This document shows positions 17,356-23,300 of a DNA stretch of 64,000 nt, in pieces. This DNA is from Thermodesulfobacteriota bacterium (GTDB taxonomy: Bacteria > Desulfobacterota_D > UBA1144 > Nemesobacterales > Mycalebacteriaceae). The stretch is from positions 160,001 to 224,000 of the forward strand of contig CBDAQI010000013.1 of assembly GCA_965198945.1 (NCBI GenBank). The letters are read 5' to 3'. Made by a program: the position numbers. How positions within the stretch are numbered: the first letter of the stretch is position 1; each line of letters starts with the position of its first letter.

Positions 17356-20300
17356 TGCTCTACCGTCTGAGCTACATGGGCAGTATCAGTTCCGAGCGGG
17401 AGACGGGACTCGAACCCGCGACCCTCAGCTTGGAAGGCTGATGCTCTAGCCAACTGAGCTACTCCCGCAGACTGGCCGGACTTGTGTTCATGGGGAGGGT
17501 AGGATTCGAACCCACGTAGGCTTACGCCGGCAGATTTACAGTCTGCTGCTTTTGACCACTCAGCCACCTCCCCCTCTTCTTGAAAAAAAACAACAGACAT
17601 AATCCAATTTCATCCCGACTTTTTACAGCTGGCGAAGGGATTCGAACCCCCGACCTGCTGATTACAAATCAGCTGCTCTGCCAACTGAGCTACGCCAGCG
17701 GTAAAACAAACATTTACAATACCGACAAAGTGCCCCATTATATACGAAAGAAAAACAGTGTCAAACAGAAAGCGTTAAACAAAAGAAGCCGTTATTGAGG
17801 CTTCCGAAATTTTTTCTCCCCCGCCGAGTTCGGCCAGAGCTTTGAAAACCATTACTCTGCTGCGCTTTCTCGTCAGGCTTACAGAAAGAGTCAAAAGCGT
17901 CCCGGGGAGGACGGGCTTTCTAAACCGGCACTTGTCAAGCCCCATAAGGTATGCGTTGGAAAACCCGCTTTTTTTTATCTCATCCTCAAATGACGCCCCG
18001 ATAAGAACGCCGCCCGCTTGCGCCAGCGCTTCGGTGATGACAACTCCCGGCACAACCGGGTTTCCGGGGAAATGACCGCGGAAGAAAAATTCTTCGGGCT
18101 CAAAAGTTTTTTCCGCTTTTAACCGTTCGCCTTTTTCAAATTCGGTTACACGGTCAAGAAACAGGAAAGGTTCTCTGTGCGGAATAAACTTTTTTATCTG
18201 TTCTTTATCAAATATCACCTTTTCAGTATTTCTGGTCGTATAAACTGATTATCTTTTCCGTAACATCAACATTTTGAGATATAAAAATGACTCCCGCATT
18301 GGTGTTGGCAAGTATGAGTGAGTAGCCTTCAGACTTTCCGAATTCATTCACAACACTCTGTATTTGTGAAAAAATTTCCCTTTTCATTTCTTCCTGTTTT
18401 CTTGTCAAGTCATCTGAAAAATCTTCTTTTGCGCGCAAGAGATCTTTCTTTTTCTGTTCAAGCGCCCTGCTTTTTTCACTCAGGGTCTCTTCGTTCATGA
18501 TGGAGAGACTCTTGGCAAAATCGTTTTCCAGATTTTCATACTGGAGGCTCTTTTCATCAAGAATTTTCTGTTTGTTTTTAAATTCTTTTTCAAGAGATTC
18601 TCTGGCTCTTTTACCGGCTTTTGAGTTGATAAGAACGCGCTGGATGTCAACAATTGCTATGCGCTCCGCCGTGTTCTCCTGCGCTCCAACCTTCACGCAA
18701 AAGGGAATTGCGAGAGCAGTCAGCAGAAAAGTTGCCAGTGTAAAACTTAAAAAATAAAAACGAGAAAATCTCTTGGTCATTTTTCTCCTCCTTAAAAAGT
18801 CTAAAATGATGCGCCTATTGAGAAGTTTACCTGACTTTTGTCCTCAAAGGGACGTCTGTCAACAGGGTATCCGATTTCAATTTTAATCAAACCCAAAGGA
18901 GAACGCCACCAAAATCCGTAACCAAAATCTTTACGCAAATCACCGGGGTCTACTGAAAACGAGAATCCCTGTTCCGGGTCAAAAACATTTCCTATATCGT
19001 AGAACAAAATTCCGAACAAACCAATGGATTCAATAAGGGGAATCACAAAATCGGCTTTGCCGTATATTCTCTCGGTTCCGCCCAGAGCCGAGTTTGTTCC
19101 TCCAACCGCTATTTCTCTGTATTCATAACCGCGAAGATCGTAGGATCCACCGAGAAAAAGCCTTTCGTCAACGGCATGGGCATTGCTCTGCCCACCCCGC
19201 AGCCAGACCCTGTCATATCCCATTTTCAGGGACAGAAAAGAGCCCTTAAAGACCGGAATCCAAGTATTGGTTTCAAAAGCCAGTTTGCTTAAATCCGTAT
19301 CTCCTCCAAATGGTCCCGTATACTCATAAACAAGAATTGTTCTGTAACCGCTTCTGGGAAAGAGAAAATTATCGCGGCTGTCCCAGCTGATTTCCGCTCC
19401 CACGGCGCTGAGTAGTCCGCTGGAAGAACGAATATTTGCCGCTATTGCGGCGGGTGAAGGGTTTGTTATTTTCAGGTCTTCCCATCTGTAGTAAATACGT
19501 CCCCAGAGTTGACTGTAAAGGCTTCTTCCAACCCCTACGGTGAATCCTATTGAGTCCGTATCGTAATCGGTATAGTCTCTTTCCACCCGTGAGACGGAAG
19601 CATCAAAAGTCCAGTCCGTGTCAAGAAAATTTCCGTCTCTGTATCTGAGCGCATATGTGTCCGTTATGTCACCGAAATTGGCCGTCGCTTCAAGAGAGTT
19701 TCCGTAACCGAAAAGATTTCCTTCCCTGATTGAACCGAAAAATATGAAATCCTCAACGGAACTCACTCCCGCCCCGAGATTGAACTGAGCGGTTGAAGTT
19801 TCCGTTACGGCAACCGTAACATCCAATTCGTTCGGGTTTTCCCTTGACCGTTCGGTTGTAACCTGTATGGAGCCGGAGTCAAAAAATCCGCTTCTTCCCA
19901 CAAGAGGTTTGATCAGGGCCAGGCTGTCAGATTCGTAAATATCCCCTTCAGCAATGGGAATCTGTCTCCTGATAAACTTGTCCACCGTTTTGTCATTGCC
20001 GACAATGGTGATTCTGTTGATGCGGAAAAGCTCTCCTTTTTCAACCCTCAGAGTGACCGCCACTCCTGGTTTACCGCCGGGTATTGACTGCTTGACCACC
20101 ACCGGATCAACGTTTACATCTGCATAGCCTTTGTTTGAATAGATGGAGGTTACAAAGTTTATATCTGATGAAAGCTTGCTGTTACCGTAGGGCTCACCCT
20201 TTTTCAAACTGATTTTGTAAAGAATTTCTTTCTCATTTACTTCGGGCGGAGGCTCTATTCCCTCAAGTGAAATTTCAGATACGAAATACTGCGGCCCCTC

Positions 20301-23300
20301 ATCAATTTCAAATGTTATTTCATATGAGTTTGTCGGCTTGTCATATTTGAACTTCGGAGGTGAAACCTTCGCATCAAGGTAGCCTTCATCCAGATAGGCA
20401 TACTTTATGCGTTCGGAGTCTTTTTCAATCTCTTCCCTGATAAACAGTCCTCTTGCACCGAGACTGTAGAACTTACGCGGACTACTGAAAATCCTTTTGG
20501 AAAGGCTCTTGGTTTTTATATTTATATTCCCTTTGATTTTCACCGAAGAGATGGTTTCCCGCTCTCCCTCGTCAACTTTGTATGCAACCCTTATCCGGCC
20601 GTCTTCTTCGGGTTCTATGTTGTAGGAAACCCGGGCGTTGCCGTAACCTTTGACCGCATAGAGTTCGGTGATTTTTTCAGCCTCGGCTTTTATTTCCGCC
20701 GTGCTGACTATCTGGTTTGCCTGAATCTCCAGAGCTTCATTGATTTTTTCATCTTTAAGGTTTTTGTTTCCGCTGAATGACAAATCCACAAGAACCGGAT
20801 TTTCTTTGAGAGTATAAGTCAGTATCACACCTGACCCGGAAACCTCTTTTTCAACGGAAACATCATAAAAGTCGCCCGTTGAGTAGATTTTTTTTATGTC
20901 CTCGGCAATCAAAGATTCATCATATATTTCCCCGGCTTTTTGAGAAATAAGGAGCTCCACCGAATCGGTTCCGATTCTTCTGTTGCCCTCAATTCTGATT
21001 TCCGAAACCTGAACGCTCTGGGCATAAGAAAACGAATTCCCCGCTATGAAAAAAGCAATGGAAAGAAAGAGAAAAAACAGTTTTTTCCACGAATCCGGGC
21101 TACGCATCTACAATTCTCCCGTCAGAAATAAAAAGAGATCTGTCAAATCTTTCAGACAAAGCTCTGCTGTGAGTCGCCACAACAAGTGCGGTGTTGAATT
21201 TGTCTCTGGCTGAAAACATTACATCGGCCACAAGATTTGAAGTGTTGGGGTCAAGATTGCCGGTCGGTTCATCGGCAAGGACTATATCAGGCTCCATAAC
21301 AAGAGCACGCGCTATGGAGACTCTCTGTTGCTGGCCTTCAGAAAGTTCGTCCGGAAAACTGCTAAATTTGTCTTCAAGACCCACACTGCACAGAAGATTC
21401 TCAGCCCTGGCACGGGATTGGGATTTGCTGATTCCGCAAATTAAACAAGGCAGAGTTACGTTTTCAAAAGCGGTAAAGCCGCTGAGCAAATTATGGGACT
21501 GAAAAACAAACCCCATTCTGCGCCTCATTCCAATGTCTCCCCCGGAAAAAAGGCATTTTTTGCCTTTGAAGAAAACTTCTCCCCGTGTCGGAGACTCTAT
21601 AACACCCAGCATGTTGAGCAGAGTTGTTTTCCCCGAACCGGACTTGCCGCTTATTGAAACGCTTTCCCCCGCATTTATGACGAGGCTGACACCGCCAATA
21701 ACCTTAAGAGTTTGGCCGCCCTGAATATACTCTTTGTCCAGATTTCTCACTTCAATTAGTGGTTTCATTGGGCTTTTAGCTTTGCCGCAAGATTGCCTCC
21801 GCGCAAGCAGTAAGCCGGATACAAAGAGGCAAAGAAACAAAATAACTGACCGGATGCTGCGACGACAAGGAAATATAAAGGCTCTATAATAACAGGGAAT
21901 TTTGATATTCCATAAACCTCCGGATCAAAAGGTATCAGTGACGCTACGGTTTCATTGTTGGCAAGCAGCCAGCACACAGTGAAGGCGGCCGCCGTTCCAA
22001 AAACGATTCCCGCAAATCCGAGAAGAGAACCGACAATAAGAAATATGTTTCCAATCTGTTTTCTTGAGGCTCCGGCGACACGCAGAATCGCTATATCCCT
22101 GCTCTTTTCAATCATCATCAACAACAAAACACTCATAACGCTCAGCGAAGCCATCAAAACTATAAACCCAAGCAAAACGGTCAGACCGAGCTTCTCCAGC
22201 CTGAGCGCTGAAAACAGTTTGCTGTTGGCTTCCTGCCAGCTTTTTGCGACAAACGGGAACCCCAGGGCATCTTCCAGTTTCTGCGCGCTCAGTTCGGATT
22301 GAAAGGGCTCTTCAATCATTACTTCAAAAGAAGACGGACTTTTATTTCCGAAAAATTCAAGCGCGTTGTAGAGATTCATATATGAAAATGTTGAATCGTA
22401 GTGCGCCATCCCGTATTTAAATATCCCGGCAACCTCGAAAGACCCGTTTCTGGGCCTTTTTTTCAGGGCTTTCTCTTTATCAGGAAAGAGAAATGTGACG
22501 CTGTCGCCTTTTTCAACACCAAGCGCATCGGCAAGCGCGTATCCCAGAACTATGGGCGGAAGTCCTGAAGAAGTCCGCTCTGAAAGAACTGAAAAAACAT
22601 CGGTCTTTCTTTCCGGTCTTTCACTCACAAACGGAAAATCTTTCATATAGACATCCGGGTCTATTCCCGTTGCGGTGGTTCCCTGAGATCCGTAGCCGGA
22701 GACAATCAGCCCCGTACCGTAGACCACGGGAAAAACACGCTCCACACCGGGAATCAGTTTGATTTGTTTTTCAACCTCGGAATGGTTTTCAATGTCTCCT
22801 TCGTAACTTGAAACAAGAACATGCGCTGAAGCGCTGAGAATTGATTTGCCAAGTTCCGTTTGAAACCCGCTCATAACTGCGAGAACAACATTAAGAGAGA
22901 ACACACCGACCCCTATTCCAAGAACCGAAATCAGCGCCGTTGAAAATATCGCCCGAACCTTTCTTTGCGAAAGCAGATATCTGAACGCGACAAAAAGCTC
23001 AAACATTTAAGGTCTCATATGTGGGAAAAACAACACTTCCCTTATTGAAGTGGTACCGGCAAGCAGCATAACGAGGCGGTCTATGCCTATTCCGGCGCCG
23101 GCCGTCGGAGGCATTCCGTGTTCAAGAGCGACGAGAAAGTCTTCGTCAGTCTCATGAAATTCATCGTCGTTATTACTTTTCATCTCCGCCTGGGCATCAA
23201 ATCTTTTTTTCTGTTCCCGGGGGTCGTTAAGCTCTGAAAAAGCGTTGGCTATCTCACAGCCGTTTATATACAGCTCAAACCTGTCCGCTATCTCGGGATT

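Follow-up and report, generated by a model that had tools for sequence, protein, structure and literature searches.

The window analysed here, a 64,000-nucleotide stretch of one contig, comes from an uncultured, streamlined marine bacterium (genome G000; 1.387 Mb, 14 contigs, 95.3% complete) and contains a compact cluster of outer-membrane genes in which bamA, skp and fabZ follow one another on the minus strand (Table 1), with 20 nt between bamA and skp and 4 nt between skp and fabZ. The bamA and fabZ products exceed the cut-offs of their NCBIfam models (TIGR03303, 487.6 bits against 297; NF000582, 135 bits against 113), and the latter is 40% identical to E. coli FabZ in tblastn. The lolC/E-like permease and the lolD-like ATPase stay below those of their top models (TIGR02212 lolCE, 259 bits against 362; TIGR02211 LolD, 221 against 308), and the position of the permease gene matches that in Geobacter and similar loci. 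The genome-wide survey's note had stated that fabZ is followed directly by tRNA genes, which is borne out: tRNA-Thr(tgt) (17627-17699) starts 75 nt past fabZ and precedes three further tRNA genes and tuf, and the four-tRNA block occupies the place of lpxA-lpxB in the outgroups. An operon boundary lies at this point, where the sigma-70-like site is the predicted start of the tRNA-tuf unit. The tuf gene is one of two identical copies in the genome, the second being on contig C11 (tblastn, 100% identity for both).

Table 1. Genes and signals of the bamA-skp-fabZ locus, in window positions
Feature	Position	Strand	Evidence
lysS (lysyl-tRNA synthetase), conserved upstream neighbour of the cluster	23007..24494	-	Pfam tRNA-synt_2, 313 bits
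lolC/E-like lipoprotein-release ABC permease, single copy	21765..23006	-	Pfam MacB_PCD and FtsX
lolD-like ABC ATPase	21100..21840	-	Pfam ABC_tran
bamA (outer-membrane protein insertase), 768 aa	18801..21107	-	Pfam, 5 POTRA and Omp85 barrel
skp/ompH periplasmic chaperone	18223..18780	-	Pfam OmpH, 95.9 bits
fabZ (3-hydroxyacyl-ACP dehydratase)	17775..18218	-	Pfam FabA
Terminator-like hairpin with T tail, 3' end of fabZ	17784..17805	-	consensus scan only
Sigma-70 consensus TTGACA-16-TATAAT, perfect 12/12, fabZ-tRNA interval	17737..17764	-	consensus scan only
tRNA-Thr(tgt), tRNA-Tyr(gta), tRNA-Gly(tcc), tRNA-Thr(ggt)	17309..17699	-	ARAGORN
tuf (EF-Tu)	16100..17275	-	Pfam
tRNA-Trp (16008-16080), short ORF (candidate secE), nusG (15200-15766)	15200..16080	-	ARAGORN; Pfam NusG

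The survey's note had spoken in its title of the phylum Desulfobacterota, a misleading label for a lineage that is Dadabacteria. The nearest named records are those of Candidatus Dadabacteria, labelled Thermodesulfobacteriota by NCBI, while Desulfobacterota proper (Geobacter, Desulfuromonas, Geothermobacter) retain lpx genes in the locus comparison. The order lysS-lolCE-lolD-bamA-skp-fabZ-tRNA(Thr,Tyr,Gly,Thr) recurs in all 20 lineage loci retrieved, which represent eight of the nine families; the four tRNAs stand directly past fabZ in 19 of them and past a 3.5-kb insert in the other (G012). Across these loci the skp-fabZ gap is 5-98 nt and the fabZ-tRNA gap, in 19 of the 20, 65-373 nt, and tblastn with E. 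coli queries finds no match to LpxD, LpxA or LpxB in any of them. All nine usable Dadabacteria-like loci of the related-locus set likewise have fabZ and no lpx gene.

Among the outgroups (Geobacterales, Desulfuromonadales, Myxococcota, Methylomirabilota, Nitrospirota), 45 of 54 usable loci carry lpx genes past bamA on the same strand, typically as bamA-skp-lpxD-fabZ-lpxA(-lpxB), and many also have lysS upstream. Dadabacteria share the order and orientation of bamA, skp and fabZ with the canonical bamA-skp-lpxD-fabZ-lpxA-lpxB cluster of E. coli K-12 and the outgroup loci, and the upstream lysS-lolCE-lolD with the delta-type outgroup clusters, but they have no lpxD, lpxA or lpxB there, and their fabZ borders on the tRNA-tuf unit instead. 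Their locus looks like the ancestral cluster minus exactly the lpx genes, which suggests that the lineage lost them secondarily, at its base, the direction being read by parsimony from synteny rather than from a rooted tree; fabZ would be the sole remnant of an lpxD-fabZ-lpxA-lpxB block. Nine of the 54 outgroup loci, however, show no lpx gene beside bamA, and the locus alone is therefore no proof of genome-wide absence.

How far does the absence extend beyond the locus? In the genome at hand, no LpxC is found by profile, and tblastn with E. coli queries gives no match to LpxA at E<=1, only an insignificant one to LpxB (E 0.70), only a weak hexapeptide-repeat match to LpxD (E 3.8e-4), and none at E<=0.01 to LpxK, KdsB, KdsC, KdsD, LptA, LptC or LptD. 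Six-frame profile searches covered 120 lineage genomes of 0.8 to 4 Mb (94 of high quality, at least 90% complete), which are related to one another and do not amount to 120 independent observations. LpxB (as counted earlier), LptF/G, the OstA/LptD_N domain, the LpxD N-terminal domain and LpxK are found in none of the 120, the absence of the last two having previously been read from the tables of one genome; nor is KdtA found above its cut-off. LpxC, again as in the earlier count, and the LpxA C-terminal domain each occur in a single genome and in none of the 94 high-quality ones. In a panel of five genomes spanning five families (G000, G012, G058, G089, G103), LptD is found in none with a model that was positive in only two control genomes, and KdsA in none above its cut-off; matches to the KdsA profile score 110-126 bits against a cut-off of 314 and are DAHP-synthase-like proteins of ~340 aa.

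The LpxC and LpxA matches share one 2.2-kb contig (C175 of G119). The survey had described the LpxC match as a 44-residue piece at a contig edge, but lpxA lies on this contig in full length as well, and so does a GFO/IDH/MocA gene. The closest named relative of its LpxA is that of the anammox planctomycete Candidatus Scalindua rubra (80% identity), and among its best 120 matches 23 are organism-named, 22 of them Planctomycetota/Brocadiia and none Dadabacteria. Two G119 congeners (93% and 88% complete) have neither LpxC nor LpxA in the profile searches. By composition the contig could not be told apart from its bin (GC 36.5% against 35.8 +/- 1.9%, with 14% of the bin's own windows equally distant in tetranucleotides), so that the verdict of contamination rests on protein similarity and the congeners: given the identity of its LpxA to that of Scalindua, C175 is evidently misbinned, Scalindua-like contamination.

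Could a lipid-A-like or anchoring glycolipid still be made by enzymes that are non-homologous or too divergent to be recognised, leaving the membrane not functionally LPS-free? Profiles detect homologues only, and several models were imperfect in the controls (OstA missed Bacteroides; KdtA and LpxK missed Synechococcus). Moreover, a conserved, envelope-linked CDP-alcohol phosphotransferase of 431-460 aa is present in 5/5 panel genomes, beside an NTP transferase in G000, and Pfam-less proteins adjoin envelope genes. Such a route nonetheless appears quite unlikely: eight independent synthesis and transport families are missing in 120 genomes (bar the misbinned contig), most of the models do catch the distant LPS producers among the controls (Synechococcus, Bacteroides, Caulobacter), and the gaps in the locus are too small for replaced genes.

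A different doubt concerns the outer membrane itself. The survey had credited the genome with a full outer-membrane toolkit, and this holds for BamA, BamD, Skp, a SurA-like protein, a TamA-like Omp85, MlaE-MlaF-MlaD, ExbB-ExbD and the LolC/E- and LolD-like proteins, to which Lgt and LspA can be added. It does not hold for TamB, which is split over three frames in G000 (intact in 5/5 congeners), for TolB, TolA and CpoB, none of which was found by tblastn, or for the OmpA/Pal domain, absent from the streamlined members G000 and G103. One might argue from the lack of this peptidoglycan anchor and of Tol proteins, and from the state of TamB, which is missing altogether in G103, that these bacteria are no longer true diderms, Bam, Skp and OEP being relics or serving a partial or atypical outer layer. 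We consider this very unlikely. BamA is retained by 119/120 genomes, and by 94/94 of high quality, as a full-length orthologue with 5 POTRA domains whose identity within the lineage is 30-66%; BamD and TolC-type OEPs occur in all five panel genomes (TamB in 4/5, the OmpA domain in 3/5), and MlaFED, ExbBD and SurA-like proteins are kept even in a 1.39-Mb genome. Retention of envelope genes under strong streamlining argues for function, and we infer a physical two-membrane envelope.

A technical artefact, whether through incomplete bins, unbinned lpx contigs or the six-frame first-look filter, is extremely improbable. Most of the genomes are indeed metagenome bins, one bin did give lpxC-lpxA, and a break ~1.7 kb downstream of bamA, where skp and fabZ have just ended, recurs in many assemblies (perhaps on account of the nearby tuf, duplicated in G000). 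However, 23 of the genomes are single-contig assemblies, closed genomes read through past fabZ into the tRNAs, tuf and nusG without any lpx gene, control genomes gave positives in every search, and the sole positive contig is Scalindua-like. That LPS loss merely follows from genome reduction in marine streamlined clades is scarcely tenable: reduction is strong in G000 and in family f9 (0.8-1.1 Mb), where further envelope components have disappeared as well, but genomes of 2-4 Mb from families f2, f7 and f8 equally lack LPS genes and have the same bamA-skp-fabZ-tRNA locus, in agreement with the survey's view that the loss is no by-product of reduction in this genus.

Thermotogota and Deinococcota are classically described as LPS-less diderm phyla. 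Like Dadabacteria, they have Bam and TolC-type proteins and no Raetz pathway, and their control genomes also lacked LpxC, LpxA, LpxB and LpxD in the profile searches. Thermus, Deinococcus and Thermotoga are, however, positive for LptF/G and the OstA domain, both absent from all Dadabacteria searched, and, as a further difference, Dadabacteria have retained the Lol-like and Mla systems that characterise envelopes of the Proteobacteria-like kind. The myxobacterium Sorangium cellulosum So ce56 reportedly lacks LPS, and Sorangium uses sphingolipids and ornithine lipids. There, as probably in Dadabacteria, LPS was lost within an otherwise LPS-bearing, delta-proteobacteria-like neighbourhood, and one Polyangia locus (L109) has the same bamA-skp-fabZ order with no lpx gene; the loss in Dadabacteria spans a whole class- or phylum-level lineage. 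According to PMC13721041, the outer leaflet of LPS-free diderms is filled by surface lipoproteins in Borrelia burgdorferi and by glycosphingolipids in Sphingomonas. Both would resemble Dadabacteria in being diderms with another filling of the outer leaflet, and Sphingomonas differs from them in its sphingolipids.

What could take the place of lipid A? Inositol phospholipids are the best lead. MIPS is present in 117/120 lineage genomes, a figure that supersedes the earlier 90/119, and G000 also encodes a 245-aa enzyme whose top matches are PIP/AIP synthases. The preprint by Heaver et al. (10.1101/2021.04.26.441525) gives as bacterial inositol-lipid routes the mycobacterial/Bacteroides PIP-synthase and a proposed CDP-inositol route; the NTP-transferase and CDP-alcohol-transferase pair of G000 has the architecture of the latter as described there, both proteins matching the IPCT/DIPPS model NF041135, and all of these scores, including those for PIP/AIP synthase, lie under the equivalog cut-offs. 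A HAD hydrolase partner was not seen, nor were sphingolipid genes or a sphingolipid route, the sole alpha-oxoamine synthase lying in a bioB-bioA-bioF context. OlsB occurs in two of the five panel genomes, G000 not among them. A lipoprotein-rich surface is possible, with Lgt, LspA and Lol-like genes present.

We found no published description of LPS-gene absence in Dadabacteria. Their ancestor most likely had the widespread cluster lysS-lolCE-lolD-bamA-skp-lpxD-fabZ-lpxA-lpxB, from which lpxD and lpxA-lpxB would have been deleted at the base of the lineage—fabZ surviving because ordinary fatty-acid synthesis needs it—so as to bring the cluster up against the tRNA-tuf-nusG unit; the remaining Raetz-pathway, Kdo and Lpt genes would have been lost genome-wide. 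Judging from gene content, beta-barrels would be inserted by BamA/BamD with Skp and SurA, lipoproteins handled by Lgt/LspA and a single-permease LolC/E-LolD system, and glycerophospholipids moved by MlaFED and, in most members, TamB. The survey's core reading is upheld by the profile absences, the conserved loci and the lpx-bearing outgroups, and we put at roughly 0.8 the probability that Dadabacteria are an LPS-free diderm lineage, with an ancestral deletion of lpx genes and other lipids in the outer leaflet. The lack of recognisable genes for LPS synthesis and export implies an outer membrane built from such other lipids; its outer leaflet would be free of lipid A, the likeliest candidates being glycerophospholipids, including inositol phospholipids.

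The cluster under study lies on the window's minus strand, where the genome-wide survey's note had described bamA, skp and fabZ followed directly by tRNA genes; the gene calls bear this out. The intergenic gaps amount to 20 nt between bamA and skp and to 4 nt between skp and fabZ, and 75 nt past the fabZ stop begins a series of genes for tRNA-Thr(tgt), tRNA-Tyr, tRNA-Gly and tRNA-Thr(ggt), succeeded by tuf, tRNA-Trp and nusG. Two ORFs at 17268-17600 and 17580-17798 overlap tRNA genes and the end of fabZ and were dismissed as spurious. In a consensus scan, a terminator-like hairpin falls on the final fabZ codons, and a perfect TTGACA-16-TATAAT promoter (12/12) lies between fabZ and the first tRNA gene; both are pattern matches only, and they would be compatible with a clean border between two transcription units. 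The window copy of tuf and a second copy elsewhere in the same genome (contig C11:67893-69065) encode identical proteins. Assemblies of the lineage often end about 1.7 kb 3' of bamA, past skp and fabZ and near tuf, and we suspect that the duplication of tuf is the cause of these breaks. The table also lists features from other parts of the window, among them a BsoBI-type restriction endonuclease, harboured here by a very small genome.

Features of the window, in window coordinates, with the basis of each assignment
Feature	Position	Strand	Basis or remark
lysS	23007-24494	minus	profile match
lolCE-like MacB_PCD/FtsX permease	21765-23006	minus	best NCBIfam match lolCE, under cut-off
LolD-like ABC ATPase	21100-21840	minus	best NCBIfam match LolD, under cut-off
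bamA	18801-21107	minus	five POTRA stretches and Omp85 barrel; TIGR03303 487.6 bits vs cut-off 297
skp/ompH	18223-18780	minus	profile match
fabZ	17775-18218	minus	NF000582 135 bits vs cut-off 113
tuf	16100-17275		
radical-SAM DUF3641 protein and adjoining DUF2064 protein	33180-34850		
fused trehalose-6-phosphate synthase/phosphatase	38415-40946		843 aa
three ORFs preceding the BsoBI-type endonuclease	58947-60393		no Pfam family
BsoBI-type restriction endonuclease	60363-61358		Pfam 436.7 bits

The genome holding the window (G000; 1.387 Mb in 14 contigs, 95.3% complete) was searched with protein profiles as part of a set of 120 species-level genomes of the same phylum, which covers nine families and 32 genera; 94 of the 120 are of high quality (completeness of 90% or more, contamination of 5% or less), 23 consist of a single contig, and genome size ranges from 0.8 to 4 Mb. 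Every profile search returned matches in control genomes. LpxB (PF02684) is found in none of the 120 genomes, exactly as the survey had counted, and the same holds for the N-terminal domain of LpxD (PF04613), for the LptF/G permeases (PF03739), for LpxK (PF02606, a model that missed the control Synechococcus) and for the OstA/LptD_N domain common to LptA, LptC and the N-terminus of LptD (PF03968, a model that missed the control Bacteroides). KdtA/WaaA (PF04413), whose model likewise missed Synechococcus, is absent above the cut-off from all 120, with one 20.5-bit match under the cut-off in an 85%-complete bin. The C-terminal domain of LpxA (PF13720) and LpxC (PF03331) are each matched in a single genome of the 120 and in none of the 94 high-quality ones, and LpxC is not found in G000.

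Two further profiles were run on a panel of five genomes, each of a different family (G000, G012, G058, G089 and G103). The LptD barrel (PF04453) is found in none of the five, a weak test, as the model matched just two control genomes. KdsA is absent from all five above the cut-off, its profile picking up in each a DAHP-synthase-like protein of about 340 aa that scores 110-126 bits where the cut-off is 314. When E. coli proteins are searched by tblastn against G000, LpxA has no match at E<=1, the sole match of LpxB is insignificant (E 0.70), LpxD yields only a weak hexapeptide-repeat match (E 3.8e-4), and LpxK, KdsB, KdsC, KdsD, LptA, LptC and LptD give none at E<=0.01. From this gene content we infer that the outer membrane would be chemically free of lipid A. 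Among the control genomes, Thermus, Deinococcus and Thermotoga keep homologues of LptF/G and OstA, whereas Dadabacteria have neither in any of the 120 genomes, so that the absence reaches further than in these classical LPS-less diderms.

The two exceptional matches, LpxC and LpxA, share one 2,171-nt contig (C175, retrieved as locus L002) of G119, a bin that comprises 180 contigs and is 78% complete. The survey's count of one LpxC-bearing genome is reproduced, but the match is more than the stray piece it was taken for, since on the contig the 3' end of lpxC is accompanied by a complete lpxA and by a gene for a GFO/IDH/MocA oxidoreductase. Composition does not separate the contig from its bin, neither by GC content (36.5% versus 35.8 ± 1.9% across 231 windows of the bin) nor by tetranucleotide use, in which 14% of the windows from the bin itself lie equally far off. 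In a protein search, its LpxA reaches up to 91% identity to unnamed metagenome proteins. The closest named relative among the top 120 matches is Candidatus Scalindua rubra at 80%, followed by Scalinduaceae (78%), Scalindua sp. (73% and 70%) and Brocadia or other Planctomycetota (62-72%); 22 of the 23 organism-named entries among these 120 belong to Planctomycetota/Brocadiia, the remaining one is labelled 'wastewater metagenome', and none is from Dadabacteria. Because the LpxA is Planctomycetota-like and the two remaining genomes of G119's genus (93% and 88% complete) are without both lpxC and lpxA, we take the contig to come from a marine anammox planctomycete and to have been misbinned. G119 alone of the 120 genomes has no BamA match, in keeping with the incompleteness of the bin. 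A single misbinned contig of 2 kb can evidently yield a false 'LPS-positive' member, and caution is warranted in this respect.

The arrangement seen in the window is shared across the lineage. For 20 genomes that represent eight of the nine families, the roughly 15 kb surrounding bamA were annotated by tblastn, with the window proteins and E. coli LpxD, LpxA and LpxB as queries, and by ARAGORN. All 20 loci display the order lysS-lolCE-lolD-bamA-skp-fabZ-tRNA-Thr-Tyr-Gly-Thr-(tuf)-tRNA-Trp-nusG, tuf being absent from the locus in family f9, and none of them has a tblastn match to LpxD, LpxA or LpxB. The spacing between skp and fabZ is 5-98 nt, and in 19 loci 65-373 nt separate fabZ from the tRNA genes. 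The sole insert, a 1031-aa ORF without a Pfam family, lies between fabZ and the tRNA genes in G012 (L038:864-3959), and one genome of the 20 has two copies of skp.

A single BamA query found no relative in a collection-wide search, and an alignment of 13 BamA sequences of the lineage retrieved 80 loci. The best 18 of these are titled Candidatus Dadabacteria (a class of Thermodesulfobacteriota in the NCBI taxonomy), Thermodesulfobacteriota or Deltaproteobacteria, with a few evident mislabels, and have the gene order of the lineage. Those of the Dadabacteria-like loci that extend at least 3 kb 3' of bamA contain fabZ in 9/9 cases and lpx genes in 0/9, some of these records possibly being the same as genomes of our set and thus not independent of the 20 loci. 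The remaining 62 loci belong to Geobacterales, Desulfuromonadales, Myxococcota, Methylomirabilota, Nitrospirota and further groups. Here, lpxD, lpxA and/or lpxB follow on the bamA strand in 45 of the 54 loci with at least 3 kb 3' of bamA, the usual order being lysS-lolCE-lolD-bamA-skp-lpxD-fabZ-lpxA-lpxB and then an ABC ATPase; E. coli has bamA-skp-lpxD-fabZ-lpxA-lpxB. Neither fabZ nor lpx genes follow bamA in seven of the 54, including L136, where lpxA and lpxD lie on the opposite strand. Two loci, L109 from Polyangia and L149 from an uncultured deltaproteobacterium, have the order bamA-(skp)-fabZ and no lpx genes, and may represent independent losses of LPS. In two Nitrospirota loci (L090 and L100) the same tRNA-Thr/Tyr/Gly/Thr(-tuf-tRNA-Trp-nusG) block sits beside bamA, but upstream and divergent, and the adjacency of the bamA cluster and the tRNA block may therefore predate Dadabacteria.

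How could the lineage have arrived at this arrangement? The Dadabacteria locus is the widespread cluster minus exactly three lpx genes, with fabZ kept and lysS-lol untouched. By parsimony on synteny, this would point to a secondary loss of the lpx genes in the stem of the lineage. The streamlining of marine clades can be rejected as the cause, the same locus being found across the lineage; the survey had likewise held that the absence does not stem from genome reduction in this genus, and both the lineage-wide locus and the profile searches agree with it. Its attribution of the absence to 'the phylum Desulfobacterota' has to be narrowed: a loss characteristic of Desulfobacterota proper is rejected because members of that group keep the genes, and the lineage concerned is Dadabacteria.

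Diderms without LPS were already known in Thermotogota and Deinococcota, and Sorangium cellulosum, a member of Polyangia, reportedly lacks LPS as well. Compared with other LPS-less diderms, Dadabacteria stand out as a whole class- or phylum-level lineage amid LPS-bearing delta-type phyla, and they keep Lol-like and Mla systems and bear a clean deletion scar. Our searches found no report on the LPS, lipid A, outer membrane or diderm state of Dadabacteria, Desulfobacterota_D or UBA1144, and neither a cultured member nor microscopy of the Dadabacteria envelope in the literature searched; the figures or supplements of two broad envelope surveys, Taib et al. 2020 and Witwinowski et al. 2022, may already show the lineage as LPS-negative. 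Sphingomonas and Borrelia are given as LPS-free diderms in PMC13721041. The paper on which the survey's note had leaned, PMC8115339, makes no mention of LPS, lipid A, outer membrane, Gram or diderm.

Much of the outer-membrane apparatus is retained. With the window BamA as query, an orthologue is found in 119 of the 120 genomes and in 94/94 of high quality, at identities of 62-66% within the genus and 35-41% within the order, falling to 30-33% in family f9, whose genomes are small, and most genomes of the lineage have a second Omp85 of about 600 aa. BamD and TolC-type OEP occur in all five panel genomes, TamB in four (none in G103) and an OmpA/Pal-type domain in three (none in the streamlined G000 and G103). 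G000 encodes BamD, a 604-aa TamA-like Omp85, a MlaE-MlaF-MlaD operon, a SurA-like chaperone and ExbB-ExbD, as well as Lgt and LspA (by tblastn). The Lol permease and ATPase, whose best NCBIfam matches both stay below cut-offs, have the same synteny as in the outgroups, and E. coli LolA has no tblastn match in G000. The 'full toolkit' previously ascribed to this genome therefore stands in its core of Bam, Skp, SurA-like, OEP, Mla and ExbBD components but not in its completeness, since TamB is split and TolB, TolA, Pal and CpoB have no tblastn match in G000. The TamB sequence, at C13:93677-97178 outside the window, is distributed over three frames of 731, 294 and 140 aa; the second junction is an ATGA overlap across which the Pfam TamB match continues seamlessly, and in each of the five congeners a single open frame spans 1143-1186 aa. 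Either the gene is a recent pseudogene or the assembly contains two frameshifts. The outer-membrane tether seems to have been lost along with streamlining in G000 and G103; a tether between outer membrane and peptidoglycan does not belong to the features by which diderms are defined.

What could stand in for LPS within the outer leaflet? Candidates were ranked by the universality of their genes in the lineage. Sphingolipids are rejected for now: each of the five panel genomes has a single alpha-oxoamine synthase, which is clustered with bioB and bioA in G000, G089 and G103 and is therefore BioF. Ornithine lipids are not universal, OlsB being present in two of the five and absent from G000. The squalene/oxidosqualene cyclase domain of sterol and hopanoid synthesis is found in none of the five, whereas a steroid pathway in Dadabacteria is reported in PMC8237579, so that these lipids would characterise some members at most.

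Inositol phospholipids are the best-supported lead. Myo-inositol-1-phosphate synthase (MIPS) is present in all five panel genomes and above the cut-off in 117 of the 120 (93 of the 94 of high quality, 32/32 genera), more than the 90 of 119 counted by the survey. Its identity is 69-76% across families, and its gene lies directly behind rplM-rpsI in G000 (C1:37486-38829; L165:8486-9829), G089, G012 and G103, four of the five genomes checked. G000 has three CDP-alcohol phosphotransferases, the first of which adjoins psd and has PssA as its best match. A 245-aa protein has its best NCBIfam matches in archaetidylinositol phosphate synthase (119 bits), PIPSynBT1523 (99) and PIPSynth (95), all under cut-offs (95-119 versus 170-180 bits); its score against pgsA is just 32 bits, and its best solved relatives in the PDB are PIP synthases (E 4e-14 to 6e-12). 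A PIM-like glycolipid cluster is rejected, as this PIP-synthase-like gene adjoins argS, a SPOR protein gene and rplS, with no glycosyltransferase or acyltransferase there. The products of these enzymes might equally be lipids of the inner membrane.

The lead to outer-leaflet inositol lipids also draws on a gene pair at C5:57449-59540 of G000, encoding a 262-aa NTP transferase and then a 431-aa CDP-alcohol phosphotransferase. The latter has its phosphotransferase domain at the C-terminus behind a part of about 225 aa without a Pfam family, and is conserved in all five panel genomes at 410-460 aa. Both proteins match the bifunctional IPCT/DIPPS model NF041135; among solved structures, those closest to the 431-aa protein are AF2299 and IPCT/DIPPS, and those closest to the NTP transferase are LicC, PntC and IPCT. 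A CDP-inositol route to phosphatidylinositol (PI) in Prevotella and Bacteroides vulgatus is described as proposed and unproven in preprint 10.1101/2021.04.26.441525, and the architecture of the G000 pair is the one proposed there. The pair could instead make a solute such as di-myo-inositol phosphate.

The distribution of PgsA is relevant to the anionic lipids of the lineage. Canonical PgsA (TIGR00560 above cut-off) is found in 15 of the 19 genomes of family f9, whereas the remaining eight families, to which G000 belongs, have it in 0/101 genomes. In E. coli, Lgt draws diacylglycerol from phosphatidylglycerol, and Lgt is present in G000 despite the absence of canonical PgsA there. This allows two readings: the PIP-synthase-like enzyme may make PGP, or the bacteria may do without phosphatidylglycerol. 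We put at roughly one in five the chance that the outer-leaflet role of LPS has been taken by inositol phospholipids, PI or its derivatives, made by MIPS, the PIP-synthase-like enzyme and the CDP-inositol-type pair, and that in the main order, where canonical PgsA is found in 0/101 genomes, PI has also displaced phosphatidylglycerol as the anionic lipid.

LPS is commonly viewed as the defining, near-essential lipid of Gram-negative-type outer membranes, and the exceptions known to us are few and scattered. Dadabacteria, a cosmopolitan lineage of marine, sponge and subsurface settings, appear to have shed the whole pathway once, at the base of the lineage, providing a natural experiment on the role of Bam, Lol-like and Mla systems without LPS and posing the puzzle of an Mla system kept with no LPS/phospholipid asymmetry to defend. 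The abundant Dadabacteria are predicted to be without endotoxin and without the 3-hydroxy fatty-acid biomarkers of lipid A. Inositol phospholipids offer a concrete candidate for the substitute lipid and, should the proposal prove true, Dadabacteria would possess the first Proteobacteria-like outer membrane, with Bam, Lol and Mla, that is built on inositol lipids.
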